Source: an uncultured bacterium
GTDB taxonomy: Bacteria; Actinomycetota; Coriobacteriia; Coriobacteriales; Coriobacteriaceae
Direction of reading: 5' to 3'
Length of the DNA: 41,379 bases
NCBI GenBank assembly: GCA_905215005.1
Contig: CAJMOM010000001.1
Location: forward strand, 1 to 41,379
The translations under genes and the position numbers were made by a program. The stretch's first letter is position 1. Each line of letters starts with the position of its first letter. The notes under the pieces were generated by a model, which saw only the letters and a list, made by a program, of their open reading frames with translations, had not been told where the DNA came from and searched no databases. Positions 2,049 through 26,154 of the stretch are shown here, in pieces.

Positions 2049-2050
2049 CC

Positions 2051-2986: not shown

Positions 2987-3000
2987 GAGACGTACCTCCC

Positions 3001-4038: not shown

Positions 4039-4068
4039 ACCACTCCCCTATCTAGGGATTAACCTAAA

Positions 4069-4098
4069 TGGGATGCCGATCGCCAGACCGGCATCCCA
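4069..4098 (-). terminator. Hairpin between oppA and oppB (partial terminator or mRNA stabiliser)
   Basis: Minus strand TGGGATGCCGGTC-TGGC-GATCGGCATCCCA followed by TTT. Confidence 0.65.
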
Positions 4099-4194
4099 AA
4101 ATTACCATCAGCCAGTTTACCCCAGGTTAGGGAGAACTGTATGTTTCCCATGAGGTCTACGTAAATACTTGACCCTCACGGAAGCTGCAAACTC

Positions 4195-5871
4195 TTAGGC
4201 GAGCTCAGCAGTACCCAGCTCGGCGTGCTTCTGCGGATCGACATAGAGGTGCTTGATGCGATCGGAGCCAACGATGGTGTGCGTGTAGAACATCACCGGG
4301 ATGACCGGGCAGTCGGCAGCGACCATTGCGTCGGCCTCCTGCATCTTAGCGACGCGCTCGTCGTCGTCAACCGTGGTACGAGCCTCGTCGACCTTGGCGT
4401 CGAACTCGGGGTTGTTGTAACCGGAACGGTTGTCGCCACCGAGGGAGTCGGAGTGGAACAGCGGATACAGGAAGTTGTCCATGATCGGGTAGTCGGCAAT
4501 CCAGCCCAGACGACCGAACTGATAGTTAAAGTTCTGATACTGCTCGAGCAGGGCAGACCACTCAGGGGTATCGGAGACAGCAGTAACGCCAACCTTGGCG
4601 AGGTCGCCGATGATGGACTCCATGATCTCCTTGTGGCCACCGTCCTGGTTGTAGGAAAGGGTCACGTTAATGCCACGATCGCCGTTAGCGTCAGCGGGAG
4701 CAACCTTGTCGAGGTACTCGTTAGCCTTGTCGACGTCGTAGGCGCAGAACTCCCATGCGCCCTCCTTGTAGCCATCGATGCCCGGAGGAACAATGCCGTC
4801 GGCGGGGGTACGGGTACCCTTGAAGATGGTCTTGCAGATGGCCTCACGGTTGATGGCCAGGGAGATACCCCTACGCAGGTCAGCGTTGTTGAACGGCTCG
4901 GCCGTGTTGTTGCAGGTCAGGTAGTAGGTGGAAGGCTCGGAGCCGAGCAGCATACGCTCGCCGTCACCCATGGTGTAGCCGTCCTTGGACACGCCGCGAT
5001 CCTTCTTGGCGGCGTCGATCTGAGCAACGGGAACGTCGCAGACATCGAGGTTACCGGCCTGGAACTCCTTGTAAGCGGTCTCCATGTCCTTGATGACCTG
5101 GAAGTGGATGCCATCGATCTTGGCCTTGTCGCCATAGTAATCGTCGAACTTCTTGAGGTTGATCTCCTGACCATCCTCCCACTTGCCGTCCATCATGAAC
5201 GGGCCGTTACCGACCGGTGCAAGATAGAAGCTCTTGGCATCGGACTCGGCGCACTCGGGAACCGGGGACAGAGCCGGGTGAGAAGCGACGAAGGGGAAGT
5301 CGGCGTAAGCGGAAGACAGCTTGACGACGAGGGTCTCATCGTCGGGGCAAGTAACACCGCTGAGCTCGGTGGCGTTACCGGCAAGCAGGTCGTCATAGCC
5401 CTCGACCATGGAAAGGTGATAGGAGACCTCAGAAGGGCCGTACTCGGTAGCGATGGCCGACTTGGTGTTGACCAGACGCTCCCAACCGAGCTTGAAGGAC
5501 TTGGAGGTGACGTCATCACCGTTGTGGAACTTGGCCTTCTTGATCTTGAAGGTGAACTCGGTGGCGTCGTCGTTGGCCTCGAAGGACTCGCAAGCCAGCG
5601 GAACGATCTCGCCCTTCTCGGCGTCATAAGAGGTCAGAGCGTCAAAGAGCTGGTACTCGACCTGAGTGCCCTGGTCCTCCTGGACATTGTAGGGGTCGAT
5701 GCAGACCGGGTTGTTGATGTAGAAGTTCAGCGTCGAACCGGACTCAGAACCGGAAGCGTCGCCGCCCTTCTTGCCGCATGCGGCAAGAAAAGCCATGGAG
5801 CTCGCAGCGAGGGTGCCGCCAACAAAGGCGCGACGACCCATAACGGGCTGGTGGAACATAGAATCAGCCAT
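4195..5871 (-). CDS. oppA: Peptide ABC transporter substrate-binding lipoprotein (family 5) with Tat-type signal
   Basis: Start moved to ATG 5871 (RBS AAGGAGG). GRRAFV twin-Arg, lipobox LAAC, AKFHNGD, PVGNGPF, GWIADYP. Confidence 0.93.
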   Translation of the reverse strand: MADSMFHQPVMGRRAFVGGTLAASSMAFLAACGKKGGDASGSESGSTLNFYINNPVCIDPYNVQEDQGTQVEYQLFDALTSYDAEKGEIVPLACESFEANDDATEFTFKIKKAKFHNGDDVTSKSFKLGWERLVNTKSAIATEYGPSEVSYHLSMVEGYDDLLAGNATELSGVTCPDDETLVVKLSSAYADFPFVASHPALSPVPECAESDAKSFYLAPVGNGPFMMDGKWEDGQEINLKKFDDYYGDKAKIDGIHFQVIKDMETAYKEFQAGNLDVCDVPVAQIDAAKKDRGVSKDGYTMGDGERMLLGSEPSTYYLTCNNTAEPFNNADLRRGISLAINREAICKTIFKGTRTPADGIVPPGIDGYKEGAWEFCAYDVDKANEYLDKVAPADANGDRGINVTLSYNQDGGHKEIMESIIGDLAKVGVTAVSDTPEWSALLEQYQNFNYQFGRLGWIADYPIMDNFLYPLFHSDSLGGDNRSGYNNPEFDAKVDEARTTVDDDERVAKMQEADAMVAADCPVIPVMFYTHTIVGSDRIKHLYVDPQKHAELGTAELA

Positions 5872-6113
5872 GCCATCCTCCTTATGAGATAGGACAAAGA
5901 AATGTTCAGTCGGACACATGTCGAGACAATCCGATCCGAACCATCAAAACGCCGCCCGTTGCTATGGCTGGTTATGCACAACAGGCCAACGTTTTGCAAT
6001 ACAGTAGCGCATTTTATGCACAAATTGGGCCTGATTCCGGTCAACGGTCAAGAATTTCTTTAGTTGGGCGAAGTATGTGGTGATATTTTTGACTCTGTTA
6101 CAAATATGTAAAC

Positions 6114-12391: not shown

Positions 12392-13294
12392 CTATGCTTT
12401 CGTGTTGGCGCGCGACAGGTCGCGATGGGAAATGCTCACGTGATATTGGGCGCCTTCCAAATAACGTGCCGTGGCTTCGGCAATGGCAACGCTGCGGTGC
12501 TGGCCGCCTGTACAGCCGATGGCGATAGAAAGCTGCGGCTTGCCCTCCGCGATATAGCCCGGCATCACCGTATCGAGCAGCTGTGTCCAAGCCTTCCAAA
12601 ACTCCTGCGTCTTGGGATGGTCCAGAACAAAATCGGAGACCTTTTTATCGAGACCGGTCATCGTGCGCATCTCGGGATCGTAGAACGGATTAGGCAGGAA
12701 GCGAACGTCGATCATAATGTCCGCCTCGACGGGCATGCCGTGCTTAAAGCCAAACGAGAACACGTGGACGTCCATGAGCTGCTGGTCGGACAGCTCGGAA
12801 AATGCCATACGTAGCTTGTTACGCAGCGCAGAGGTGCGCAGACGGCTCGTGTCGATAATCATATCGGCTCGGTCGCGCACGCCCTGAAGCTGAAGGCGCT
12901 CGCGCTGAATGGCATCGGCCGTAGTCTCCCCCGGCTTGGCAATGGGATGACGGCGGCGATTTTCGCTGTAGCGACGAATCAGCACCTCGTCAGAAGCCTC
13001 CAGGAACACGATGTCGCAGCTCATCTCGCGCTCTTCGAGCGCGGCGACAGCATCGAGCAACTCGTCAAACAGTCCCTGGCTACGCAAATCGCAGGTGACG
13101 GCGAGATGCCTGCCCACGCCCGTATTGATGCCGACGAGCTCGGCAAGCTGGGCGATGAGACGCGGAGGCAGGTTATCGATGCAAAAATAGCCCATGTCCT
13201 CGAACACGTGCATGGCCTGCGTGCGGCCCGATCCGGACATTCCGGTGATGATGACGATATCGGGGATGCGCTCCGAGCGCTCCGCCGCATCCAT
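12392..13294 (-). CDS. rapZ: RapZ/YvcJ-like nucleotide-binding protein
   Basis: Start at ATG 13294. ITGMSGSGRT, FCIDNLP, SFGFKHG, DVRFLPNP, GCTGGQHRSV. Confidence 0.95.
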   Translation of the reverse strand: MDAAERSERIPDIVIITGMSGSGRTQAMHVFEDMGYFCIDNLPPRLIAQLAELVGINTGVGRHLAVTCDLRSQGLFDELLDAVAALEEREMSCDIVFLEASDEVLIRRYSENRRRHPIAKPGETTADAIQRERLQLQGVRDRADMIIDTSRLRTSALRNKLRMAFSELSDQQLMDVHVFSFGFKHGMPVEADIMIDVRFLPNPFYDPEMRTMTGLDKKVSDFVLDHPKTQEFWKAWTQLLDTVMPGYIAEGKPQLSIAIGCTGGQHRSVAIAEATARYLEGAQYHVSISHRDLSRANTKA

Positions 13295-13325
13295 GGCATC
13301 TCCCTTTTGCATGTGCTGCCTCCCG

Positions 13326-13362
13326 AAAACAAGCGCGGGACCCAGCAACCCGGATCCCGCGC
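13326..13362 (-). terminator. Terminator-like hairpin between nanE and rapZ
   Basis: Minus strand GCGCGGGATCCGG-GTTG-CTGGGTCCCGCGC followed by TTGTTTT. Confidence 0.7.
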
Positions 13363-13413
13363 GGTCAATTGCCTATATTGAGTATACCGCCCCGAGCGGA
13401 TACGAGGCCTGTC

Positions 13414-14100
13414 TTACGCCTCAAGCGCAGCCTTGAACCAACTCGTAATACTCGTGGGGTGCGTGATGGCGGTGCCGACGACAACGGCCCAGGCGCCAGC
13501 ATCGATCGCGGCGCGAGCCTCCTCGGGCGTATGCACACGGCCCTCGCAAATGATGGGAAGGCCGGGGAATTCCTCAGTCGCCTGGCGCAGGAGCGGCAGA
13601 TCGGGGCCGTCGGCCATGGTGCAATCGATAGCGGCAACACCATGAGACAGCGTGGTGGACACCAGGTCGAAGCCCATGTCGACAGCACGGCGAATGTCCT
13701 CGATGGTGGCACAATCCGCCATCAGGAGCACACCCTCCTCGTGCAGCGGGCGGAAGGTATCCTCGACCGTCTTGCCATCGGGGCGCGGACGATCGGTGGC
13801 GTCGATCGCCACGATATCGGCACCGGCAGCAACGCAGGCGCGAGCGTGACGCAGCGTCGGCGTGATGTAAACGCCCTCGTGCCCATCTTTCCACAGGCCG
13901 ATGACGGGAACCTCACAGCGACCCTTAATGGCGGCAATGTCGGCAAGACCCTGGCAGCGAATGGCGGCGGCGCCGCCGAGCTCGCAAGCTCGAGACATTT
14001 GAGCCATGGTCTCGGGCGTACGAAGCGGCTCGCCCATATACGCCTGAACGCTCACGACGAGCTTGCCCTTCAGGGATTGAATCAAAGGATCGACGGTCAT
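13414..14100 (-). CDS. nanE: N-acetylmannosamine-6-phosphate 2-epimerase
   Basis: Start at ATG 14100. LVVSVQA, GAAAIR, PVIGLWK, VYITPT, EGRVHTP, VVVGTAITHP. Confidence 0.93.
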   Translation of the reverse strand: MTVDPLIQSLKGKLVVSVQAYMGEPLRTPETMAQMSRACELGGAAAIRCQGLADIAAIKGRCEVPVIGLWKDGHEGVYITPTLRHARACVAAGADIVAIDATDRPRPDGKTVEDTFRPLHEEGVLLMADCATIEDIRRAVDMGFDLVSTTLSHGVAAIDCTMADGPDLPLLRQATEEFPGLPIICEGRVHTPEEARAAIDAGAWAVVVGTAITHPTSITSWFKAALEA

Positions 14101-14125
14101 GTGCGACTCAACCTTTCTCAAAACA

Positions 14126-14223
14126 GCCTTCTGAGACACCGCACCTTGACGTTCAAACCGTCGCTCGCGTACCGAAGTACGCTTCGCTCCTCTTTCACGT
14201 CAATCTGCGGCACCTCAGAAGGC
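14126..14223 (-). repeat. ~98-nt nested inverted repeat (long hairpin with cUUCGg loop) between nanK and nanE
   Basis: Paired arms GCCTTCTGAG/CTCAGAAGGC, CCGCA/TGCGG, TTGACGT/ACGTCAA, GCGTAC/GTACGC. Confidence 0.75.
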
Positions 14224-14240
14224 GCACTTGGTAGTTATGT

Positions 14241-15206
14241 TTACTTCAACGAGGCAAGAAGATGCTCAGCGGCACCGATGAGCGGAGCATCGCCCTCCAG
14301 AGAACCGATGAGGATCGGTGTGTTCTGAAGCGGATCGAGCGCCTGGCTGGCATAGCCCTCGTGCACCGAATCCTTCCACGTCTGCGAACGCCAATCGGGA
14401 CCTTGGTGAATCACGCCGCCCGAAAGCACGATGACCTCAGGGTCCAGGATGTTAGCGAGCGAGCCCAAGCTGGCCCCCAGCGCAAAGCCGGCGTCATGGA
14501 TGACCTCGGTCGCCTTTGCGTCGCCCGCACGGCACAGGTCGTTCACATCGCGACCGACCGAAGGACGGCTGGGGTCGACGCGGCCAAAACGCTCATCGTA
14601 CATTCGACCAATGGAAGTGCCCGAAGCAACCGACTCCAGATGGCCGGAACGCCCGCAGGCGCAGGGAATGCCGGCGGCAGCCGAGCACTCGATGTGGCCC
14701 ATATGGCCGGCAGCACCATGGAAGCCCTGCATCACGCGGCCGTTCTCGACATATGCGCCGCCGATGCCCGTACCGATGCCAAGACACAAGACGGAGAACT
14801 TGCCCTTGCCGACGCCCCAGTGGGCCTCGCCCAGAGCATGAGCCTGCACGTCGCCTACGACGGCAACGGGAAGACCGAGGTCCTCGCGCAGACGCGGCCC
14901 CAACTGAACGCCGGACCAGCCGGGCATGATCTCATTGGCATACGCGATGGCGCCCGTCTTGGGATCGACGACGCCGGCGGCACCGATACCGACGCCAAGG
15001 ACCTCGACATCGGGATTCGCCTCGAGAGCAGCCTTGATGGACGCCTCGATACGCTGGAAGACGGCCTCGCCGCCCTCCTGGGCCTCGGTAGGAACCTCGG
15101 CCTCAAAAACGGGATGGGGCACACTACCGTCAGCCGGGTACTCCATGATGGCGGTCGCGATCTTAGTTCCGCCGATATCGACAGAGCAGACGTACTTGTT
15201 CTCCAT
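14241..15206 (-). CDS. nanK: ROK-family sugar kinase, probable N-acetylmannosamine kinase
   Basis: VDIGGTK, GIGTGIGG, GHMGH...CACGRSGHLE; lies between nanA and nanE. Confidence 0.85.
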   Translation of the reverse strand: MENKYVCSVDIGGTKIATAIMEYPADGSVPHPVFEAEVPTEAQEGGEAVFQRIEASIKAALEANPDVEVLGVGIGAAGVVDPKTGAIAYANEIMPGWSGVQLGPRLREDLGLPVAVVGDVQAHALGEAHWGVGKGKFSVLCLGIGTGIGGAYVENGRVMQGFHGAAGHMGHIECSAAAGIPCACGRSGHLESVASGTSIGRMYDERFGRVDPSRPSVGRDVNDLCRAGDAKATEVIHDAGFALGASLGSLANILDPEVIVLSGGVIHQGPDWRSQTWKDSVHEGYASQALDPLQNTPILIGSLEGDAPLIGAAEHLLASLK

Positions 15207-15279
15207 GTCGCTCTCCTTAGGAGATAAAAAACAACTACAGGAAATGAAGGCGGTGTTATCGCCGCAACTTAGTAAAGGT

Positions 15280-15374
15280 TTCCCAGGTGCCCGAGGTTGG
15301 GGTGAAAGTGGTCGGGCGTTGCCCTAATGGGTCACGCCCGACCACTTGAGCCCCAAGATCGGGTGCCTGGGGAA
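15280..15374. repeat. ~95-nt imperfect inverted repeat immediately after the nanA stop
   Basis: Core AAGTGGTCGGGCGT/ACGCCCGACCACTT (14 bp perfect), flanked by TTGGGG/CCCCAA and CCCAGG..CCCGA/TCGGG..CCTGGG. Confidence 0.8.
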
Positions 15375-15377
15375 GCT

Positions 15378-16298
15378 TTACAGGAGACCGTTGTCCTGGA
15401 GGACCTTCTTAATCGCCTCGACGTTCTCGCCGGTCATGGCCTTCACCGGGCGCGGCATGGTCGGGCTGTCGAAGATACCCATGAGGTTCATAGCGGTCTT
15501 GAAGGCGCCGACGCCACCGGCATAGCCCTGGACGCCCGAGGTGACATCCCAGATGTGCGAAATCTCGTTGAGGCGATCCTGCTCGGCCTTGACGGTAGCC
15601 CAGTCACCAGCCTGGGCGGCCTTCCACTGACGCACGTAGCCCTCGGGCTCAACGTTGGCGAGACCCGGGACGGAACCGTCGGCGCCACCGAGGTAGGCGC
15701 CGTCGACAACAACCTCGTGACCGGTGAGAATGCTCATCGGATGGCCGTTCTTCTCGTTCTCCTGAACGAGGTAGCGGAATGAGATGTCATCACCCGAGGA
15801 ATCCTTGACGCCGGCCAGAACGCCCTCGGCGCCGAGCTTGGCAAGGAGCTTCCAGGGGAGCTTGGTGTGGACGCACACGGGGATGTCGTAGGCGAAGATG
15901 GGCAGGTCGAGTTCCTCATGCAGGATGCGGAAGTGCTCCTCGACCTCGGTCATGCCCTGCAGGGCATAGAACGGGCAGGTGGCGACAAGCGCATCGGCGC
16001 CCAGCTCCTGAGCGACCTTGCCGTGCTCGATCATGCGCTCGGTCTCGGTGTCGATGATGCCGACCAGAACGGGAACGCGGTGGTCGACGATACGGACGGC
16101 CTCGGCGATGATCTGACGGCGACGCTCGTCGGTGGAGAAGACGACCTCGCCCGAGGATCCCAAGAAGAACAGGCCATCGACGCCGGCATCGATCATGCGG
16201 TTGATGCTGCGCTCAAAGGAGGCAACGTCGAGCTGGTGGTCTTCGGTATCGGGAACAACGACGGGAGGGATAACGCCGGTGAATTTCTGAGTTGCCAC
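15378..16298 (-). CDS. nanA: N-acetylneuraminate lyase (DHDPS family)
   Basis: Start at GTG 16298 (RBS AAGGAG). GSSGE, YDIP, Schiff-base Lys in GVKDSSGD; adjacent to nanK and nanE. Confidence 0.85.
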   Translation of the reverse strand: MATQKFTGVIPPVVVPDTEDHQLDVASFERSINRMIDAGVDGLFFLGSSGEVVFSTDERRRQIIAEAVRIVDHRVPVLVGIIDTETERMIEHGKVAQELGADALVATCPFYALQGMTEVEEHFRILHEELDLPIFAYDIPVCVHTKLPWKLLAKLGAEGVLAGVKDSSGDDISFRYLVQENEKNGHPMSILTGHEVVVDGAYLGGADGSVPGLANVEPEGYVRQWKAAQAGDWATVKAEQDRLNEISHIWDVTSGVQGYAGGVGAFKTAMNLMGIFDSPTMPRPVKAMTGENVEAIKKVLQDNGLL

Positions 16299-16366
16299 AA
16301 GAATCTCCTTAGTTGTCTGGCAGGCGGCCCTATGCCACCCACTCTTGTTGGCAGTGTCCAGGCCGT

Positions 16367-17218
16367 CTAGGCCAAAGAACACGAGTAGAACGTTTGGTTA
16401 AAAAAGTCGACGGCTTCGTTTTCGAACGCATTGATGCGCTCGTGAGCGTATTTTGCATAGATGATATGCCTCCGGTCACACTCAAGACCGTTGAATACGG
16501 CAAACTGATCCTTGGGATCGCTCACGGTATCCATAAGCGATGTGCCCATGAGCACCGATCCGCGCACCCGAGACGACAGCGCCTCGAGGCCGCCAGGAAG
16601 CGGATTGGCAACCGCCGTGCAGGCGAGACCCCGCTCGTCCAGAGCAGAAACCGCCAGCGCGACTCCGCCGCCTAGACCCTCGCCCCATGCAAAGATGCGG
16701 TCGGTGTCCATGCCATCAAGATTGCGCGCGACCTTCGCCAACGCGCAGCCCCAACGGACGCGCTCGACAAAAGCGGGCGAAGCAATTCCCCGCTGCAGGT
16801 CGTCCGCACCAGCAACATCGTCATCCAGAGCGAGGACGGCATACCCCATGGCGGCAAACCTCGTCATGTGATGCCAGCCGCGCGCAGGCCGATCGATGTC
16901 GTGGAACATCAGGCACAGCGGCACGAGCTCGGATGCCCGAGCGCGACCGGCGGGCTCGATCAAACGTGCGTGGACCACATCGCCACCAAGCTCAAAGGAA
17001 ACCTCGGAGTAGCGGGCATACGGATTGGCGAAATCAATCGCCGTAATGGCCAGACCTTGAATTTCAAGATCCAAAGCACATGCCTCAAAATCAGAAACAT
17101 CTGCCTGAACATCACCGTGCCAGTCCCGATATTCAGCGAGCCTTGACGAAACCGTCCCAGGAATCCCCGCAAGCTCGGAGACAATCAGCCCATCGACATT
17201 GCTCTCGCACTTAGACAT
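16367..17218 (-). CDS. CE7/AXE1-like alpha/beta hydrolase paralogue lacking the nucleophile Ser
   Basis: Colinear with the upstream esterase (VHARLIEP, PLCLMFH, RFAAMG, QFAVFNGL, AHERI) but has WGEGLGGG where the paralogue has NGASQGGG. Confidence 0.75.
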   Translation of the reverse strand: MSKCESNVDGLIVSELAGIPGTVSSRLAEYRDWHGDVQADVSDFEACALDLEIQGLAITAIDFANPYARYSEVSFELGGDVVHARLIEPAGRARASELVPLCLMFHDIDRPARGWHHMTRFAAMGYAVLALDDDVAGADDLQRGIASPAFVERVRWGCALAKVARNLDGMDTDRIFAWGEGLGGGVALAVSALDERGLACTAVANPLPGGLEALSSRVRGSVLMGTSLMDTVSDPKDQFAVFNGLECDRRHIIYAKYAHERINAFENEAVDFFNQTFYSCSLA

Positions 17219-18188
17219 GAGCCTCCCCTCCCTTGCAGAAAAACGGAATGATCAGATCGTCAAAATCCTGAATCTCCTCGTGGCCAAAGCCTTCAAAGAA
17301 CTCATGACGCTTTTCACAGGTCAGGTTGTTATAGACCGCAAACTGCGTCGCTGGCGGACAGACAATATCGGCTGTGCCTGTGCCAAACAGCACAGGGCAT
17401 TTGACCATGGGGGCAAAGTTCTTGGAATCGAAGTACGCCAGCTTGGCATAGGCTTCGTCAATACGAGTCGAGTCCTCGTCAAACCAGCGAGACCAATAGC
17501 GCAGGCCCTCGTAGGCAATGTCGTCGGCATCCAAATCCCAGACCAGGCGGAAATCTGACAGGAAGGGATAGAGGATGGCGGCACGATTGATAAGCTCGCT
17601 GTTAAGCGCACAGGTCGCAATGCCCAAACCGCCGCCCTGCGACGCGCCGTTCACAAACACACGCGCAAGATCGATGCCCTCGAGCTCGCGAACGATGCGG
17701 CACAGGATGCGAATATCTTGGTGCAAGCGGACATAGTAGAGGTTGGCCGGGTCGCCGTCGATACCGGCGACGATATGACCGGCAACCGTTGTGCCCTCAA
17801 ATCCACCAATGTCCTCAGAGGGACCTCCTTGGCCGGGGCAGTCGAGGGCGATGAGTGCCATGCCCATGCCCGCAAACGACGCCTGCTCAAACCAGCTGCG
17901 GCTTGCACCCGGATACCCATGGAACTGAAGTACCAATGGCACGGGCTCGTCCGAGACAGGTTTAAGGTACTTGGCATGCAGGCGCGCGCCACACATGCCG
18001 GTATACCAGAGGTCGAAAAGCTGGCAGGTCGCGGCATCGGCGACCGATGCCGTCTCGATCTCATAGTCAAGCCCGACGGCGTCGGCCTCGGCCATGCGAT
18101 CCTTCCAAAAGAGATCGAAATCTGATGGACGGGGCATGGCGCCTCGGTATTCACCAAATTGATGTTGTAGCTCCTGAGCACTTGGCAT
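17211..18188 (-). CDS. Acetylxylan esterase/cephalosporin-C deacetylase family (CE7) acetylesterase
   Basis: PSDFDLFW, FHGY, PGQ, GASQG nucleophile, DIVCPP Asp, GHE His; no signal peptide. Start ATG 18188 (alternative TTG 18203). Confidence 0.88.
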   Translation of the reverse strand: MPSAQELQHQFGEYRGAMPRPSDFDLFWKDRMAEADAVGLDYEIETASVADAATCQLFDLWYTGMCGARLHAKYLKPVSDEPVPLVLQFHGYPGASRSWFEQASFAGMGMALIALDCPGQGGPSEDIGGFEGTTVAGHIVAGIDGDPANLYYVRLHQDIRILCRIVRELEGIDLARVFVNGASQGGGLGIATCALNSELINRAAILYPFLSDFRLVWDLDADDIAYEGLRYWSRWFDEDSTRIDEAYAKLAYFDSKNFAPMVKCPVLFGTGTADIVCPPATQFAVYNNLTCEKRHEFFEGFGHEEIQDFDDLIIPFFCKGGEAHV

Positions 18189-18224
18189 GGCTCGTGAACC
18201 CAACCTTTCGAAATCGCAACGGAG

Positions 18225-18252
18225 GTGCGCCCGGCAAGGGAACCGGGCGCAC
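18225..18252 (-). other. Perfect 10-bp GC hairpin between the transporter ATPase and the esterase genes
   Basis: GTGCGCCCGG-N8-CCGGGCGCAC, no U-tract. Confidence 0.6.
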
Positions 18253-18268
18253 GGGAGGGAAAGCGAGG

Positions 18269-19096
18269 CTACTCGCCGAGCTTGGGATGCAGCAGCGACG
18301 GCGCAGCGCCGAGCAGCATCTTGGTGTAGGGGTCCTGGGGGTGCTGGAAGACCTGCTTGGCCTCGCCCTGCTCGACGATCCTGCCGCCATTCATAACGAT
18401 GATGTCGTCAGAGATATAGCGGACCGTCTGGATGTCATGGCTGATGAACACCATGGCCAGGCCGAGCTCCTTCTTAAGGTCGGTCAACAGGTTCAGAATC
18501 TGTGCGCGGACCGAAACGTCCAGAGCCGAGGTGGGCTCGTCGGCGATGATGGCATCGGGGTTCAGCGACAGGGCACGGGCAATTGCGACGCGCTGACGCT
18601 GGCCGCCCGAAAGCTGACCGGGAAGAACCTCGGCGGCGGAGCTGGGCAGACCGGTGAGCTCCAGGAGCTCCTTGACGCGCTTCTCCTGCTCGGCCTCGGT
18701 ACCCAGGTTGTGGACGCGCATGGGGTCGAGCAGCTGCTCGCGAACGACCATGCGGGGGTTGAGCGCCGTGGCCGGGTTCTGGAACACGACCGAGATGACG
18801 CGACCCATGTGGCGACGGTCCTCGGCGGTACGTTTGGTAACGTCCTTGCCCTTAAAGTAGACTTTGCCGCTCGTAGGGGCCTGCAGGCCGCACATGACGT
18901 TGGCGGTGGTGGACTTACCGCAACCGGACTCGCCGACGATGCCGATCGTCTGACCGGGCATGAGCTTAATCGTTACACCCTGGACGGCGTGAACCAGGTT
19001 GGGGTGCAGAATCGAGCCGGTACGGGTCCTAAAGGTGACGTGGACGTCATCAAGGAAGATGATCGGCTCGACGCCGTTGACTGCGGTCTCGCTCAT
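18269..19096 (-). CDS. ABC ATP-binding subunit of probable sialic-acid transporter
   Basis: GESGCGKS, LSGGQRQR, IIADEPTSALD; within the nan cluster. Confidence 0.9.
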   Translation of the reverse strand: MSETAVNGVEPIIFLDDVHVTFRTRTGSILHPNLVHAVQGVTIKLMPGQTIGIVGESGCGKSTTANVMCGLQAPTSGKVYFKGKDVTKRTAEDRRHMGRVISVVFQNPATALNPRMVVREQLLDPMRVHNLGTEAEQEKRVKELLELTGLPSSAAEVLPGQLSGGQRQRVAIARALSLNPDAIIADEPTSALDVSVRAQILNLLTDLKKELGLAMVFISHDIQTVRYISDDIIVMNGGRIVEQGEAKQVFQHPQDPYTKMLLGAAPSLLHPKLGE

Positions 19097-21112
19097 CTAC
19101 ATCACCTCCGCGTGAGGGGTCAAACCATTTGCCTTGAGCACCTCGTCGGGGAGCTCGGAATAGAAGTGCTCGGTGCCGGGCACGCGCTTGAAGACCGGAC
19201 GGGTGTCCAGGCCAATACGCGGATGGCTCGAGCGGGGCGCGAAGCGATCGCCCTTGGGGAAATCGCGCGGGCTCGGAACGGCGCCGGGCACCTGGTGCAG
19301 GCGACCCGAACCGCTCTCGATGGACAGAACGGAACCCAGAAGACCGCGGGTGTACTCGTGGATCGGGTTGGTGAGCAGCTCCTTGGTGGGTGCCTGCTCG
19401 ATAACCTGGCCAGCGTACATAACCGTGATGTTATGGGCAACCTCGGCGACCAGAGCCAGGTCATGCGAAACGAAAATCATGGCAAAGCCGAGCTTGGCCT
19501 GAAGATCGTTGAGCAGCTTGATGACCTGCTTCTGGACGGTAACGTCCAGAGCGGTCGTGGGCTCGTCGCAGATGACCAGCTTGGGGTCGCGGGTAAGGGC
19601 CATAGCGATCAGGACACGCTGACGCTGGCCGCCGGAAAGCTCGTGCGGATAGCTCTCGAGCGTGCGCTTGGGATCGAGGCCGACGAGCTCCAGGAGCTCC
19701 TCGGCGCTGCGGGTTCCGCCGCGCTTGGTGAGCTGCTTCATCTGGGCAGAGATGAGCATAGAAGGGTTGAGCGAGGACAGGGCGTCCTGATAGACCATGG
19801 CGATATCGGTACCGCGCAGGCCGAACCACTCCTTCTTGCTCATCTTGAGTAGGTCACGGCCCTCCCAGAGAACCTCGCCGGAAAGATGCTCGTCATCGTC
19901 GGTCAGGCCCATGATGGCCAGCGTGGTGATGGACTTACCGCAACCGGACTCGCCCACCAGGCCCATGGTCTGACCAGGACGGACGTCAAAGTTGACATGG
20001 TCGACGACGTTGATATCACCGTGATGCTCAAACTGGATGCAGAAGTCACGGACCGAGAGAATCGGTTCGACAGACTCATCGGGCACATGGCGATCGTCAC
20101 GCTTGAGCTCGACATCGCGCAGGGCGCCAAGGCGAGCGGAGAGGGACTGGGCCTGCTCCTTGTAGGCGCGAACGGGATCGGAGACCAGCAGATCGGCCTC
20201 GCGACGCTTGGAGGAATCGGTAGGATCCAGGGCGGCGGAGGGAGCAGCGGCCATGGCGTCGGTAATGCCCTCGGAGAGGATGTTGAGCGCCAGGCAGGTG
20301 ATCATGATGGCCAGGCCAGGGAACAGCGCCTGCCACCAACGGCCGGCGAGCACGCCGCCGCGGGCGTCGGCGAGAATGTTGCCCCAGGTAGCGGTGGGCT
20401 CCTGGATACCAGCGCCGATGAAGGTCAGCGAGGCCTCGAAGATGATGGCGTCGGCGACCAGGGTAACGGTGAAGACCATGATCGGGGCGATGCAGTTACG
20501 CAGAACATGCTTGATCAAAATCCACGGAGCCTTGGCGCCGGAAACGATGACCGCGCGGACATAGTCCTCGCCGTACTCGGACACGATATTGGCGCGTACG
20601 ATACGGGCAATCTGCGGAGTGTACATAAAGCCGATGGCGAAGATGATCGACGGCACGGAGTTGCCCAGGATGGAGACGAAGACGGCCGCGAGGGCGATGC
20701 CCGGGATGGACATGATGATGTCCAGGATACGCATGATCGTCTCGGAGACGGCCTTGCGCGAAACCGCTGCAAGGGCGCCCACGACCGAGCCGCAGACCAG
20801 AGCCATGGCAGTGGCGCCAAAGCCGATGATCAGCGAGTAACGACCACCGTAGAGCATACGCGACAGAATGTCGCGACCCTTATCGTCGGTACCGAAGATA
20901 AATCCGTTGCCGGGAGCCTGGCGAGCCGTAAAGATCTCGACCGGGCTATAGGGGGCAAGAAGGGGCGCCAGAATCGCAGTCAGGGCGACCAGCACCAGCA
21001 CGACGGCGGCAATCTTAGAAGACAGCGTCATCTTCTTCCAGCCACCGAGCTTGAGCCCCTTGGAGGCAGCCTTCTCGAGCTGCTCGGTTTGCTTCTCTCG
21101 AATCTTTACCAT
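19097..21112 (-). CDS. Fused ABC permease plus ATP-binding subunit of probable sialic-acid transporter
   Basis: N-terminal half DppC-like (FGTDDKGRD, ATWG); C-terminal half ATPase (GESGCGKS, LSGGQRQR, CDEPTT). Confidence 0.9.
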   Translation of the reverse strand: MVKIREKQTEQLEKAASKGLKLGGWKKMTLSSKIAAVVLVLVALTAILAPLLAPYSPVEIFTARQAPGNGFIFGTDDKGRDILSRMLYGGRYSLIIGFGATAMALVCGSVVGALAAVSRKAVSETIMRILDIIMSIPGIALAAVFVSILGNSVPSIIFAIGFMYTPQIARIVRANIVSEYGEDYVRAVIVSGAKAPWILIKHVLRNCIAPIMVFTVTLVADAIIFEASLTFIGAGIQEPTATWGNILADARGGVLAGRWWQALFPGLAIMITCLALNILSEGITDAMAAAPSAALDPTDSSKRREADLLVSDPVRAYKEQAQSLSARLGALRDVELKRDDRHVPDESVEPILSVRDFCIQFEHHGDINVVDHVNFDVRPGQTMGLVGESGCGKSITTLAIMGLTDDDEHLSGEVLWEGRDLLKMSKKEWFGLRGTDIAMVYQDALSSLNPSMLISAQMKQLTKRGGTRSAEELLELVGLDPKRTLESYPHELSGGQRQRVLIAMALTRDPKLVICDEPTTALDVTVQKQVIKLLNDLQAKLGFAMIFVSHDLALVAEVAHNITVMYAGQVIEQAPTKELLTNPIHEYTRGLLGSVLSIESGSGRLHQVPGAVPSPRDFPKGDRFAPRSSHPRIGLDTRPVFKRVPGTEHFYSELPDEVLKANGLTPHAEVM

Positions 21113-21115
21113 AAT

Positions 21116-22072
21116 CTACACCGTCCTGATGCGCGGGTTGATGAGCAGGTAGAGCATGTCAACCACGATGTTGATGATGATGAAGGCAAGAGCAACGACG
21201 ATGACGACGCCCTGAACCAGGTTCGCCTCGTTGCCCTGAACGCCCTGCAGAATCGCGGTGCCCATGCCGGGGAGGTTGAAGATAACCTCGATGACGACGG
21301 CGCCGCCCATGAGGTAACCGATCTTAAGACCGAGGGTGGTGACCGGGGTGATCAGCGCATTGCGAAGAACGTTGATGCCGACGACGACCTTCTCGGGAAC
21401 GCCGGCGCCGCGAGCCATACGGACATAATCCTTATCGAGCTCCTCGACCATGGCGGTACGCACGATACGAGTCATCTGGCCCGTCAGCGGAAATGCCAAG
21501 GCGATAGCGGGCATGATCATACGTCCCAGATAGCCAACCGGATTCGTGGTGAAGTGAGGCAGAGCACCGGACGCCGGGAGCACCTTAAGGTAGGAAGAGA
21601 ACAGCAGAATCAACAGAACGGCAAGCCAGAACGACGGGGTTGCCAAGCCGGCGATGGAAAAGACGCGGATCACTTGGTCCGGCCATTTGTCGCGATACAG
21701 TGCCGCGATGACGCCGAGCAAAAACGAAACGACCGCACCGATGGCAAGACCGATGAAGGTCAGCTGCATCGTGACGGGCAGGGCCGTGGAGATGCGCTTG
21801 GCAACGGAGTTGCGAGCAGCACCATAGGTGCCCATGTCGCCATGGATCAGATCGCCCATATAGCGCACGTAGCGCACGGGCCAGGGGTCGTCCAGACCAT
21901 ACTTCTCATGGTACTCGGCGACCGCCTCGGGCGAGGCACCGTCACCCAACGCCGTGTAGGCGGGGTCGGTCTTGGAGAACGACATAAGGAAGAACACCAG
22001 GACGGTGACGCCCAATGCCATGATCGGCAGCGCCACAAGACGCCTTCCAATCAAACGTAGCAAGTTGTTCAC
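21116..22072 (-). CDS. ABC permease (DppB-like) of probable sialic-acid transporter
   Basis: Start at GTG 22072 (RBS GGGGAG). GDMG, PSFW, DYVRMARGAG, EVIFNLPGMG, INPRIR. Confidence 0.9.
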   Translation of the reverse strand: MNNLLRLIGRRLVALPIMALGVTVLVFFLMSFSKTDPAYTALGDGASPEAVAEYHEKYGLDDPWPVRYVRYMGDLIHGDMGTYGAARNSVAKRISTALPVTMQLTFIGLAIGAVVSFLLGVIAALYRDKWPDQVIRVFSIAGLATPSFWLAVLLILLFSSYLKVLPASGALPHFTTNPVGYLGRMIMPAIALAFPLTGQMTRIVRTAMVEELDKDYVRMARGAGVPEKVVVGINVLRNALITPVTTLGLKIGYLMGGAVVIEVIFNLPGMGTAILQGVQGNEANLVQGVVIVVALAFIIINIVVDMLYLLINPRIRTV

Positions 22073-22133
22073 GTTCTCTCCCCTTTCTTTTGTCGGTAGG
22101 ACCAACTGGTATATGAGTACGGATACTCATTAC

Positions 22134-22167
22134 AAGACCCGAGCGACATCGTTGCCGCCCGGGTCTT
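22134..22167 (-). terminator. Hairpin after the substrate-binding protein gene
   Basis: Minus strand AAGACCCGGGCGGCA-ACGA-TGTCGCTCGGGTCTT; a second small IR ATGAGTA-N4-TACTCAT lies at 22113-22130. Confidence 0.65.
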
Positions 22168-22229
22168 TGTTTCAACTATGAGGATACGGTCCCAACGACC
22201 GACATCCTGCATACAGACTCAAGCGAGTC

Positions 22230-23843
22230 TTACGCCTTGACGGTCGCAACGCCCCTGAAGGACATGCTCGTCGTGCCGATGCCCTTGAAGCCATCGAGGG
22301 CCTCGCCGTTGGGCGCAGTGGACGGATCGTCCCAGGAAGCGGAGACGGTCTTGACGTGGACAACGGGGTACAGAACGGCGTTGTCGGCAATGATGTCGAA
22401 GCACTCGTTCCACTTCTTCTGCTGCTCGTCGCCCTCGGCGGCAAGAGCCTCGTCCATGAGACCGTGGAGCTTCTGCCACTCAGCGGACTCCTTCCACGGG
22501 CAACGGGTCTGCATCCAGACGTTGTCGCCGTACCACCAGTTGAGCAGCAGGTCGGGGTCGGCGCCGAAGCAGGAAGGATCGCCAGGGGCAAGGAGGATAT
22601 CGTAGGCCTCGCCGCCGTCGATGGCAGCGTAGGTGGCCGGCGAGGTATCGGTCTGGATGGTCACATCGAAACCGAGAGCGTCGAGGTCGTTCTTGACCTG
22701 GGCGGCCATGCCCTTAATCTGCTCGTTGTCGGTGGTGCGCAGGGTGATAGCGCCCGGGGTGATGCCAGACTCCTCGATGAGCTTCTTAGCCTTCTTGGCG
22801 TCGGTCTTGTACACCGTGGAAGCCTCATGATAGTTGGTGAAGCTCTTGGGCAGGTAGCAGCTGGCAGCGGTGGCAAGGCCGGCGAAGGTGTTACTGACCA
22901 TCTTCTCGGTGTCGAGCGCATACATGACAGCCTGACGGACCTTGACGTTGTTCCAAGGCTCCTTGGCGACGTTGAACATGATGAAGCGGGTGCCGAAACC
23001 CTGAACGTTATCGATCTTGCAGCCGGCGCTCTCGAGCTGGTCGACGGCGTCAGCGGTAACGAGCTCCATAACGAGCGTGGAGCCCTCCTGCTGAGCGGTA
23101 ACGCGAGCGGTGGGGTCGGTCAAGATGCTGTACTGGATCTTCTTATCCTCGGCAGCATACTCACCGTTGTACTCGGGGTTGGGAACCAGGGTGATCTCGG
23201 TATCGGAAATAGAGTCGTACATCCAGGGGCCGGAACCGATCGGCTGCTTGGCGCGATCCTCCTCGGTCTGGGTGGCCGGGGTAACGCGGACGATGGCAAG
23301 ACGATCCTTGAGCAGGGAGAAGTTGGGGACCTTGGTCTTGACCGTCACGGTGCTGGCGTCCTTGGCCTCGATGGACTCGAAAGGCTGGAAGAACGGAGCA
23401 TAGGTAGCGGAAGCTGCGCAAGCGGTGTAGGAGGCAACGACATCGTCAGCGGTGACCTCGGTGCCATCGGAGAACTTGGCGCCCTTGCGGATGGTGACCT
23501 CGAAAGTGGTGTCGTCCACAGACTTGGGATCGTCGGTGGCGAGCTCGTTGAAGGTGCTGTAGTCGTGGTAATCGATGCCGTAGAGGCCCTCGACGACGTG
23601 CCAGTTAGCACCCAGGCCCACAGCGGAGCCGGTGCTGGCGGGATCGAAGCTGGACGGAGCGTAAGCGGAACCAGCGGTGATCACGCCGCCGCCACGGTTG
23701 GCGGAATCGGTGGAACCGGAAGCGGAACCCTCGTCGCTAGAGCTGCCACCGCAGCCGGTGAGACCAAGCCCTGCGACAGCAGCGACGCTGCCGGTGAGGC
23801 CGAGGAACGAACGCCTGGACATACCCTTGTTGATGATGGCCAT
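22230..23843 (-). CDS. Family 5 substrate-binding lipoprotein, probable sialic-acid binding, Tat-type signal
   Basis: Start at ATG 23843 (RBS AGGAG). SRRSFL, lipobox LTGC, AKFSDG, PIGSGPW; first gene of the nan cluster. Confidence 0.88.
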   Translation of the reverse strand: MAIINKGMSRRSFLGLTGSVAAVAGLGLTGCGGSSSDEGSASGSTDSANRGGGVITAGSAYAPSSFDPASTGSAVGLGANWHVVEGLYGIDYHDYSTFNELATDDPKSVDDTTFEVTIRKGAKFSDGTEVTADDVVASYTACAASATYAPFFQPFESIEAKDASTVTVKTKVPNFSLLKDRLAIVRVTPATQTEEDRAKQPIGSGPWMYDSISDTEITLVPNPEYNGEYAAEDKKIQYSILTDPTARVTAQQEGSTLVMELVTADAVDQLESAGCKIDNVQGFGTRFIMFNVAKEPWNNVKVRQAVMYALDTEKMVSNTFAGLATAASCYLPKSFTNYHEASTVYKTDAKKAKKLIEESGITPGAITLRTTDNEQIKGMAAQVKNDLDALGFDVTIQTDTSPATYAAIDGGEAYDILLAPGDPSCFGADPDLLLNWWYGDNVWMQTRCPWKESAEWQKLHGLMDEALAAEGDEQQKKWNECFDIIADNAVLYPVVHVKTVSASWDDPSTAPNGEALDGFKGIGTTSMSFRGVATVKA

Positions 23844-24075
23844 GTCTTCTCCTATCAATAGAGAATCTTACTCGGGAGCACCTAGACTTGCCCCCGCGCA
23901 ACTTGCGGACGATATATACCTTACCTACCGACGAACCCAACTGAGGTGCCGCGCTCGGCGACCGATACATACATACGCTTGAACGGTATTTACTACCGTT
24001 CACCGAATTCGTTGACAAACGATTCGCCAGACAGTATGTATCGGCGAGGTGAGATATCAGTCTTCGTCAACCCGC

Positions 24076-24116
24076 AGGATAGCAGGGTTTTCGCTTGGGT
24101 TAGTCAAACGTTTTAG
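24076..24116 (-). promoter_or_regulatory. Candidate nan operon promoter (extended -10) with an upstream LacI-like site
   Basis: Minus strand TGcTATCCT at 24084-24076; CTAAAACGTTTGAC at 24116-24103. Confidence 0.4.
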
Positions 24117-24207
24117 CGTTAATAAAACCCGAAACCAGCAGGCAATCATGGCGAAATAAATGGTTGAAAATCGCGCAATCATGTATATCAGTTGTTTAGG
24201 CTCGTGT

Positions 24208-26154
24208 TTAGCTATCAGAATGGCCAGCCGCCGCCTCGGCGCGCTCGGCATTCCATGCAACGAGCGCCTCGTGGACCGCCTTGGCAACATCGGCAGGTAT
24301 GCCGCGAACTTCCGCGATCTCTTGCTCGCTCGCCGCGCGCAAACGCTTCATCGAGCCAAAATGGCGCATAAGGGCACGTTTTCTGGTGGGTCCCACGCCT
24401 GGAACGTCATCGAGTACCGAAACCGTCATGGCTTTATCGCGCAACTCACGATGGAATGTAATTGCAAAACGGTGCGACTCATCGCGTACCTGTTTAATTA
24501 GATAGAGCGACGCAGACCCGGTCGGCAGCACGACAGGAGTCTCGTCCCAAGGCACAAAAACTTCCTCGTCGGCCTTCGCCAAGCCACAAACTGGTATATC
24601 GAGCCCAAGAGCCTCAAGTTGCTTGATCGCAGCGGTCAATTGCGGCTTACCGCCATCGACAACGAGCAAATCGGGGCGAGATCCAAAGCGCTCGTCGGCC
24701 ATACGCTCGGGAGCATAGCGTCGTCCCAAAACCTCGGACATCGACACGAAGTCGTTTGCCTCGTCCAATTCGGCCTGAATTTTAAAACGACGGTACTGGC
24801 TCTTGTCGGCGCGCCCGTTTGTAAACACCACCATCGAGGCGACGGTAAAGGTTCCGTGCAGCGTCGAGATATCGAAGCACTCGATACGCATCGGCGGCGC
24901 CGGCAGCGCCAGCGCGCTTTCGAGCTCTAGGAGCGCCTGATTGGTGCGGTCGTCAGCGTACCCCGTTCGCATCATGTAGCGCATGAGGGCATGGCGCGCG
25001 TTTTTGGATGCTATATCGAGCAGACGGTGCTTTTCGCCACGCTGCGGCCTATGGAGATGGCAGGAACGCTCACGCTTGCCCGCAAGCCACTCCCCCAGCG
25101 CCTCCGCATCCTCAAGCTCGACAGAGAGGTTTATCTCAGCTGGAATATCAGCCGTCTCGTCGTAATAGCGCTTAAGAAAGCCCGACTGGAGCTCTTCCTC
25201 GTCAACATCAAGACCCTTGTCGAGAATGAACTCGCAGGTGCGAACTGTTCGGCCCTCGCGAACGACGAAGACGCAAGCGGCGGAGATGGTCTCCTCGCGA
25301 TAGAAACCGATGACATCGATATCGACACTGGAGGGAAAAACGACTTGCTGACGGTCGTCCAGACCCCTGATGACCTCCAAACGACGTTTGACGCGGGCAG
25401 CGCGCTCAAAGTCGAGCGCCTCGGCGGCATCCGTCATCTCGGAGGTCAGCTCATCGACGACATCCTTGCGATGGCCCGACAAAAAGCGCTCGACACGCTT
25501 GACGTTCTTGGCATAGTCTGCCGGGGAAATCGCGCCGACACACGCACCCGGGCCGCGCCCGACATGGTAGTCAAAGCAGGGACGCCCGTTTTGCGCGCAA
25601 ATCATATTGACGATGTCTTCCTCGCCCTTGTGGGACTCGACGATACGACGACAACGACGCCACTCCGCACAAGAAGCCGAGCAGATCGGAATCACCTTGC
25701 GCAGCGTATCAATGGTCTCACGCGCCGCGCGGCTGTCTGTATAGGGACCAAAATAACGCGTTCCCGGCTTATGGCGCTCACGCGTATATTTGATAGCTGG
25801 GAACAGATCGCTCTTGGTGATAGCGATAAAGGGATAGCTCTTGTCGTCCTTAAGGTCCACATTAAAGTACGGATGGTACTGACCAATCAAATTGCGTTCG
25901 AGCACCAACGCCTCATGCTCGGTCTCCACCACGATATAGTCAAAGCTCGCCACCAGCTGCATCATCAGCGGGATCTTTTGACGCTCATCCTGCAGTGTCA
26001 CGTATTGACGCATGCGGGCGCGCAGGTTTTTCGCCTTGCCCACGTAGATGACATCGCCCTTGGCATCCTTCCAAAGGTAGCATCCGGGCTGTGTGGGAAC
26101 GCGCGAAACCTGCTCGGCAAGCGTTGGAATGTTGTCGTGACCGGCCACGTGCAC
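24208..26154 (-). CDS. uvrC: Excinuclease ABC subunit C
   Basis: GIY-YIG (GCYLW, IYVGKAKNLR), DDKSYP, IECFDIS, VDGGKPQL, RDESHRFA, HhH GVGPTR. Confidence 0.97.
   Translation of the reverse strand: MHVAGHDNIPTLAEQVSRVPTQPGCYLWKDAKGDVIYVGKAKNLRARMRQYVTLQDERQKIPLMMQLVASFDYIVVETEHEALVLERNLIGQYHPYFNVDLKDDKSYPFIAITKSDLFPAIKYTRERHKPGTRYFGPYTDSRAARETIDTLRKVIPICSASCAEWRRCRRIVESHKGEEDIVNMICAQNGRPCFDYHVGRGPGACVGAISPADYAKNVKRVERFLSGHRKDVVDELTSEMTDAAEALDFERAARVKRRLEVIRGLDDRQQVVFPSSVDIDVIGFYREETISAACVFVVREGRTVRTCEFILDKGLDVDEEELQSGFLKRYYDETADIPAEINLSVELEDAEALGEWLAGKRERSCHLHRPQRGEKHRLLDIASKNARHALMRYMMRTGYADDRTNQALLELESALALPAPPMRIECFDISTLHGTFTVASMVVFTNGRADKSQYRRFKIQAELDEANDFVSMSEVLGRRYAPERMADERFGSRPDLLVVDGGKPQLTAAIKQLEALGLDIPVCGLAKADEEVFVPWDETPVVLPTGSASLYLIKQVRDESHRFAITFHRELRDKAMTVSVLDDVPGVGPTRKRALMRHFGSMKRLRAASEQEIAEVRGIPADVAKAVHEALVAWNAERAEAAAGHSDS

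Follow-up and report, generated by a model that had tools for sequence, protein, structure and literature searches.

Two overlapping CE7 genes in the window

We analyzed positions 1 to 41,379 of contig CAJMOM010000001.1 (assembly GCA_905215005.1), which derives from an uncultured bacterium of the Coriobacteriaceae, and this whole stretch of 41,379 nucleotides (nt) is called the window below. The study concerns two adjacent genes on its minus strand, A and B, both coding for proteins related to the CE7 esterases, of which A keeps the catalytic serine of the family and B carries a glycine, Gly181, in its place. Both proteins match the AXE1 profile of CE7 above its cut-off of 21 bits (280.7 bits for A and 92.5 bits for B). 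They are 27% identical over 255 columns, which is far above chance (E 3e-24), and a profile-profile comparison (hhalign) of the B family with canonical CE7 sequences gave a probability of 100% (E 1.6e-62). The genes are colinear and overlap by 8 nt (Table 1), as had been noted in an earlier reading of the window (hereafter the original prediction) and was confirmed here on the minus strand. The ATG start was retained for A because its homologues align from residue 1 of this form; an alternative TTG start at 18203 would add five amino acids (aa). Read directly from the sequence, both proteins start without a hydrophobic signal-like stretch, and both should therefore be cytoplasmic.

A carries Ser183, Asp274, His303 and Glu304 within the motifs GASQG, DIVCPP and GHE, and its oxyanion-hole motif reads FHGY. 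The full catalytic triad attributed to A in the original prediction was thus recovered with all three motifs, but not the full CE7 signature, as the RGQ motif of the family reads PGQ in A, with the Gly-Gln kept and the Arg replaced by Pro.

B differs at most of these positions. Its nucleophile elbow reads GEGLG, with Gly181 aligned on the Ser of GxSQG, the oxyanion-hole motif HGY of A is replaced (FHDI), and no counterpart of RGQ was found in the profile alignment. Conversely, B shares with A the catalytic Asp (Asp230) and the HE motif (His259 and Glu260). A gap of 42 residues follows NPLPGG, at the site of the three-helix insertion of CE7 enzymes, and the loop after the strand LALDDD, corresponding to the beta-interface loop, is about 15–17 residues shorter. 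These observations agree with the original prediction, which had reported GEGLG, HDI for HGY, the absence of an xGQ motif and some 40–45 missing residues. A register shifted by one residue, placing Glu180 at the nucleophile position, was ruled out because Trp and Leu would then fall on elbow positions that take small residues; Gly181 is supported by every alignment. B is predicted to be unable to use the serine mechanism of CE7. We filed it as a CE7-fold pseudoenzyme candidate and not as an esterase, because it lacks the nucleophile Ser, RGQ and HGY of the family.

Table 1 Positions of the A and B genes, of their key codons and of the surrounding operon in the window.
Feature	Position	Strand	Evidence
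Gene A, active-type CE7 esterase, 325 aa from ATG	17211..18188	minus	Pfam AXE1 E 1.5e-83; PDB 3fcy E 6.7e-73
Gene B, Gly-type CE7 paralogue without nucleophile, 283 aa	16367..17218	minus	Pfam AXE1 E 2.8e-26
8-nt overlap ATGTCTAA, start codon of B and stop codon of A	17211..17218	minus	read from sequence
Shine-Dalgarno-like run GGGAGGGGAGG within the end of A, 3 nt ahead of the ATG of B	17222..17232	minus	read from sequence
Codon of the A nucleophile Ser183 (TCG)	17640..17642	minus	read from sequence
Codon of B Gly181 (GGT), nucleophile position	16676..16678	minus	column aligned with the Ser of GxSQG
Codon of retained B Asp230 (GAT), within MDTVS	16529..16531	minus	read from sequence
Codon of retained B His259 (CAC), in AHE; opens the HERINAFENE motif	16442..16444	minus	read from sequence
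SatA-like solute-binding protein, first operon gene	22230..23858	minus	Pfam SBP_bac_5 3.8e-64
ATP-binding cassette (ABC) permease	21116..22105	minus	Pfam BPD_transp_1 1.3e-38
Permease fused to ABC ATPase, 671 aa	19097..21112	minus	BPD_transp_1 residues 108-286, ABC_tran 371-520, oligo_HPY
Second, separate ABC ATPase	18269..19096	minus	Pfam ABC_tran 3.3e-36
NanA-like aldolase (DHDPS family), longest open reading frame, overlapping the end of B	15378..16382	minus	Pfam DHDPS 3.1e-41
ROK-family kinase (NanK-like)	14241..15206	minus	Pfam ROK 3.9e-51
NanE, N-acetylmannosamine-6-phosphate 2-epimerase	13414..14139	minus	Pfam NanE 8.2e-51
Terminator-like hairpin after nanE, 13 pairs, 10 of them G-C	13333..13362	minus	consensus match only

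Predicted structure of B and the CE7 oligomer elements

A model of B built by AlphaFold2 with an alignment of its homologues reached a mean predicted local distance difference test (pLDDT) score of 94 and a predicted template-modelling (pTM) score of 0.93, while single-sequence prediction gave only a pLDDT of 37. The top Foldseek matches of the model were all CE7 esterases (TM 0.72–0.75), and among the PDB matches an engineered loop-truncation variant, 5hfn, gave the best target-normalised TM-score (0.72) and superposed with the smallest root-mean-square deviation (2.8 Å).

Compared with the canonical CE7 enzymes (PDB 3fcy, 6fkx and 1ods, and TM0077, 1vlq), both A and B share the AXE1 match, and the model of B superposes on them. 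B departs from these enzymes by Gly for Ser, HD for HGY, the lack of RGQ and of the three-helix insertion, and its short beta-interface loop; A departs by PGQ for RGQ and is otherwise an ordinary member. Each of the 16 PDB sequences matched bears the name of an esterase or deacetylase, and no natural Gly-type protein was found among them.

The CE7 hexamer is built by an N-terminal extension, the three-helix insertion after beta6 and the beta-interface loop (PMC6209228). All three elements are kept in A. In B, the N-terminal extension is present and predicted with a pLDDT of 95–98, 42 residues of the insertion are missing and the loop is truncated. With two of the three contact elements lost or shortened, a simple swap of B into the canonical hexamer is therefore unlikely, and any assembly of A and B would have to differ from the known one.

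Fixation of Gly181 and selection on B

Glycine occupies the elbow in all of the best 120 of 245 close homologues of B, which are 85–92% identical and all 283 aa long; the elbow reads GEGLG in 119 of them and GVGLG in the remaining one. A genome scan was also performed, which found 597 relatives and from which the best 80 loci were kept (77 titled Collinsella, two "uncultured bacterium" and one Oscillospiraceae). By these matches, the genome of the window is Collinsella aerofaciens-like. Codon 181 of B is GGT in 65 copies and GGC in 14 (79 copies, window included), so that the glycine is encoded by two synonymous codons. In 71 copies of A, Ser183 is encoded by TCG (65) or TCT (6). All 78 complete copies of B are free of stop codons and indels.

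The ratio of non-synonymous to synonymous substitution rates (dN/dS) was calculated by the Nei-Gojobori method over unique alleles, the values being pairwise averages over related alleles and not estimates from a tree-based model. It was 0.18 for B (bootstrap 95% confidence interval 0.13–0.24) and 0.063 for A (0.038–0.095), with 0.032 for nanA and 0.015 for the ROK kinase gene as comparisons. Within B, the core segments gave 0.09–0.12, the N-terminal extension 0.26 and the loop remnant (residues 133–150) 0.68. B is under purifying selection, looser than that on A and far from neutral, as its overall and core dN/dS and its uniformly intact copies indicate.

The end of A overlaps the start of B in all 78 loci that reach upstream, the two others of the 80 beginning inside B at a contig end. 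The overlap is exactly ATGTCTAA in 77 of these 78 loci, the last one having a GTG start, and the 30-nt A–B junction with its Shine-Dalgarno-like run is identical in 67 of them and differs by one or two bases in the rest. The gene order is colinear in 80/80 loci, with nanA after B in every one, and 52 loci have the complete set of ten genes. Given this strict overlap and the Shine-Dalgarno-like run, B is predicted to be translationally coupled to A.

The original prediction had proposed that orthologues be compared for conservation of GEGLG, A–B linkage and dN/dS. The results above, which for linkage and dN/dS come from Collinsella-type loci, bear it out on each point, and the signs it had named against a pseudoenzyme (Ser in orthologues, neutral decay and frameshifts) were not encountered among these homologues and loci.

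The original prediction had also cautioned that Gly181 could stem from a sequencing error or a strain mutation, and B might likewise be a decaying duplicate. Indeed, GGT is one transition from AGT, the non-synonymous rate of B is about three times that of A, and the B allele of the window is unusually divergent. However, the glycine is fixed in the homologues and in all 79 copies with two codons, the copies are intact, the upper confidence limit of dN/dS is 0.24, and Gly-type relatives at 30–49% identity have invariant residues of their own (described below). We consider error or decay extremely improbable and rejected both on these grounds.

The B allele of the window is an outlier among the Collinsella-type loci. 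It is 88–95% identical to the other 78 copies, whose mutual median is 98.6%, and the proteins flanking B in the window are 97–100% identical to their counterparts in other loci. It differs from the majority at 21 sites, 20 of which lie within residues 10–172 and 18 within residues 10–112, and the synonymous divergence (dS) of the window from the other loci is 0.21 for B and 0.10 for A. This pattern suggests a recombined or old allele of the 5′ half of B. Separately, the 2269-bp contig titled Oscillospiraceae bacterium (L078) carries an A–B pair 91–99% identical, which is probably a binning error rather than a gene transfer.

A deep clade of Gly-type CE7 proteins

To describe the wider family, one representative per 50% cluster was searched, which yielded 250 matches at E ≤ 0.001, the best 150 of which were considered. 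From these, 76 stand-alone rows of 245–340 aa were kept, other lengths and nine poorly aligned distant rows being excluded and two-domain proteins handled separately. Among the matches listed, the elbow residue of these 76 diverged representatives is Gly in 51, Ser in 22, Cys in one, Ala in one and a gap in one.

We then selected the 52 stand-alone proteins with a glycine at position 181, window included. They share the signature FHD ... RGWHHMTRF ... WGEG[LF]GG ... LMD ... HERINxFENE. Gly179 and Gly183 are present in all 52, Arg120 in 51, and Glu180, Asp107 and Arg113 in 50 each; after the His, Asn263 is kept in 49, Glu260 in 48 and Glu266 in 47. The old triad residues, Asp230 (44) and His259 (46), are less conserved than Glu180, Asp107, Arg113 and Arg120. 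B combines three traits expected of a pseudoenzyme, namely loss of a catalytic residue, purifying selection and conservation across lineages.

The spacing between the elbow and the Asp is full (89–103 residues) in 22 of the 52 Gly-type proteins, 77 in one and shortened (47–68) in 29, with a value of 49 for B of the window. Because 22 of the 52 keep the full-length spacing, a deletion of the 42-residue type must be a later event inside the Gly-type clade. Hence, the deletion that the original prediction reported is present in B but is not common to all its relatives. Three apparent intermediates were seen: P0170 has a Cys at the elbow (GNCQGG) and P0179 reads GEGQGA, both with RGQ, and the second domain of the fusion P0181 (see below) has a Ser there.

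A further profile search returned 33 matches, a few of them with names (Tractidigestivibacter, Oscillospiraceae and one JGI name), and the matches in a protein atlas were all Actinomycetota clusters with the automatic label "cephalosporin C deacetylase". In a plasmid collection searched by tblastn, three weak matches were obtained, all to ordinary CE7 genes.

Natural A::B fusions and the proposed role of B

Twelve natural single-chain fusions of 504–550 aa were identified (P0161, P0163, P0169, P0181, P0258, P0270-P0275 and P0278). Their N-domains are 47–67% identical to A and carry GxSQG; a short linker and a B-type C-domain follow, so that the domain order is the A–B gene order of the window. 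The C-domains begin near residue 50–80 of B (residue 19 in P0270), and their elbow residue is Gly in nine, Ser in one (P0181, GESYG), Ala in one and Phe in one. His259 is replaced in two of the 12 (by Leu or Arg) and Asp230 by Glu in two.

A quick maximum-likelihood tree of 100 rows, with starred support values, placed all Ser-type sequences on one side of a starred branch (97). A of the window, eight fusion N-domains and three stand-alone proteins form a starred clade (99), and the fusion C-domains fall inside the Gly-type family at no fewer than three places, i.e., at least three. Because of the long branches and the quick search, no root or order of events was drawn from this tree. PGQ is found in all 14 A-type sequences checked (A and 13 others), and the three most divergent fusions keep RGQ; among the 17 canonical CE7 sequences with a pattern match, 16 have RGQ and one has PGQ (P0264). 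After the catalytic His, the motif H-E-x-I-x-x-F-[DE]-[DN] is common to A-type and B-type domains and was found in 0/20 canonical CE7 sequences scanned. That the invariant Arg113 or Arg120 of B compensates for the PGQ of A-type proteins is pure speculation.

We lean toward reading B as a non-catalytic partner of A that is kept by selection, most likely as a subunit of an A–B hetero-oligomer. The idea of a partnership is independently supported by the 12 A::B fusions and by the strict overlap in 78/78 loci. From these data, we infer that B has no activity, that it is in contact with A, and that it modulates A (stability, assembly, specificity or gating). The original prediction, in which B was a pseudoenzyme acting as a subunit or a binder, gains support at the sequence level from the fixed glycine, the purifying selection, the fusions and the overlap.

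Several observations weigh against such a partnership. Two of the three elements for subunit contacts in CE7 are missing or shortened in B, and the fusions also lack the N-terminal extension. The loop remnant of B evolves almost freely, and the dN/dS of B is about three times that of A. The Asp and His are still kept in most Gly-type proteins (44/52 and 46/52), and they are not obviously needed by a pure scaffold. The Ser at the elbow of the P0181 C-domain means that not every second domain need be dead. A–B adjacency is known from the Collinsella-type loci only, i.e., the best 80 of 597, 77 of them so titled. Finally, loss of axe, the gene of the CE7 enzyme Axe in pneumococcus, led to no growth or virulence phenotype (PMC5352144).

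The retained Asp and His could also mean that B is an enzyme with a non-canonical mechanism, working in sequence with A and not as its subunit. Here His259-Asp230, together with Asp107, Glu180, Arg113 and Arg120, would act on O-acetyl sialic acid by water-mediated hydrolysis or by acetyl transfer or migration. The acidic and basic residues gained next to the elbow and the oxyanion loop, kept in 50–51 of the 52 proteins, would fit such a chemistry, as would the enzyme-like core dN/dS of about 0.1 and the fold with its pocket-forming core, predicted at a pLDDT of 94; same-pathway enzymes also occur fused. However, the elbow has no nucleophile, the oxyanion-hole Tyr, the Gln of GxSQG and RGQ are lost, what is left of the triad is conserved less well than the new motif and is replaced in some of the fusion C-domains, and in the Axe of Streptococcus pneumoniae the replacement of Ser181 by Ala abolished acetate release (PMC5352144). 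Taken together, these points make a catalytic B unlikely.

A narrower version of this idea is that the Gly-type clade is a sialate O-acetyl migrase, moving acetyl groups, for example, from 7-O/8-O to 9-O, or from 4-O, and passing a single isomer to the A esterase to which it is coupled or fused. Such a migrase has long been postulated. The His-Asp pair at a nucleophile-less elbow and the near-invariant Asp107, Glu180, Arg113 and Arg120 could be its basis, but we regard this as a long shot.

B could instead be a non-catalytic protein that binds or senses acetylated sugar or another ligand, for example by holding substrate or signaling to regulators, and makes no stable contact with A. Binding pseudoenzymes typically have a conserved pocket-lining core that lacks a nucleophile, and no regulator gene lies in the operon. 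Conversely, the repeated fusions to an A-type domain in the gene order of the window point to joint action, and no DNA-binding or signaling domain was detected in B by Pfam, which makes a free-standing binder rather improbable.

A sialic acid operon around the A–B pair

The A–B pair lies within a single minus-strand operon that codes for, in this order, a SatA-like solute-binding protein, a permease, a permease-ATPase, an ATPase, A, B, a NanA-like aldolase, a ROK kinase and NanE (Table 1). The best PDB matches of the solute-binding protein are 5za4, 5z99 and 5yyb (E ~1e-91, and 1.2e-91 for 5z99), the next family following at 7.8e-29; 5Z99 is the SatA of the Haemophilus ducreyi SatABCD sialic acid transporter (PMC10017367). 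The operon hence has the composition of the SatABCD (ST3) type, with a SatA-homologous binding protein and oligopeptide-type permeases and ATPases beside nan genes, and sialic acid is its predicted ligand.

The NanA-like aldolase matches PDB 5c54, "Dihydrodipicolinate synthase/N-acetylneuraminate lyase" (E 3e-71), and stays under the NCBIfam cut-offs of both nanA and dapA. Its longest open reading frame has a GTG start 16 nt inside the 3′ end of B, and the start may be further downstream because the alignment with structural homologues begins at about residue 30. The ROK kinase is matched by the N-acetylmannosamine kinase models of NCBIfam, under their cut-offs, and NanE scores 264 bits against a cut-off of 189 (NF002231).

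The substrate of the pair would be O-acetyl sialic acid, because of this operon context and by analogy with the pneumococcal Axe. In the pathway that we propose for an A–B hetero-oligomer, a SatABCD-type transporter would import sialic acid, O-acetylated forms included, and a cytoplasmic A–B esterase would strip the O-acetyl groups from it. A would be the hydrolase, and B would serve assembly, stability, gating or specificity within the hetero-oligomer. The NanA-like lyase, the ROK kinase and NanE would then process Neu5Ac.

Comparison with known systems

NanS of Escherichia coli and EstA of Bacteroidetes are sialate O-acetylesterases of the SGNH fold, unlike the alpha/beta-hydrolase fold of CE7. 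Their proposed job, the removal of O-acetyl groups ahead of sialic acid catabolism, is the same as the one suggested here (PMC3658417, PMC10017367). NanS has been reviewed as an enzyme that works ahead of uptake; A and B, by contrast, have no signal peptides.

The pneumococcal Axe (SPD_1506) is an intracellular CE7 enzyme that liberates acetate from bovine submaxillary mucin and increases the release of sialic acid by NanA (PMC5352144). Like A and B, it is a CE7 protein of a nan locus tied to sialic acid use; however, the excerpted report describes it as a single gene without a serine-less partner. Vimr's review draws Axe in streptococcal nan clusters, according to a figure legend, and lists an Axe homologue of Collinsella aerofaciens (E 1e-54, 34% over 314 residues) (PMC3658417).

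The operon of the window resembles the SatABCD-type sialic acid clusters (H. ducreyi, Bifidobacterium breve) in its HdSatA-like solute-binding protein and in having oligopeptide-type permeases and ATPases together with nanA, nanK and nanE, and it differs by the permease-ATPase fusion and by the A–B esterase pair. As to pseudoenzymes, ABHD5/CGI-58 is an alpha/beta-hydrolase whose nucleophile is replaced and which acts as a co-activator of ATGL. The partner of ABHD5 is unrelated in fold, whereas the partner proposed for B is the paralogue next door, to which B-type domains are sometimes fused.

No description of serine-less CE7 proteins, CE7 pseudoenzymes or A–B pairs was found in the literature searched, from which subscription papers were mostly absent, and this is not proof of absence. 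Judged by titles and abstract openings, none of the literature found on Collinsella, sialic acid and esterases deals with the A–B pair, and none of that on carbohydrate esterases and pseudoenzymes seems to treat CE7; the papers found on CE7 and O-acetyl sialic acid were not relevant either.

The Gly-type proteins are named acetylxylan esterase or cephalosporin C deacetylase in their sources. Surveys of carbohydrate-active enzymes (CAZymes) in gut metagenomes thus count as CE7 a large serine-less clade whose members probably hydrolyze nothing on their own. If the A–B hetero-oligomer exists, it would be a bacterial carbohydrate esterase in which an active subunit is paired with its dead paralogue; the natural fusions would then be ready-made constructs and the system a tractable model for pseudoenzyme subunits arising by tandem duplication. 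O-acetylated host sialic acids block many sialidases and lyases, and the pair would bear on their use by Collinsella, an abundant gut actinobacterium.

Genomic surroundings of the operon

The sat-CE7-nan operon (13414-23858) is flanked by uvrC and by rapZ-whiA-gap-pgk-tpi, the whole block spanning 12392-26154. The operon seems to have been inserted among these housekeeping genes, which are usually neighbors in Actinobacteria. Downstream of the glycolytic genes, on the same strand, positions 1-5919 encode another ABC transporter of the oligopeptide type, with a solute-binding protein (4195-5919), two permeases and two ATPases.

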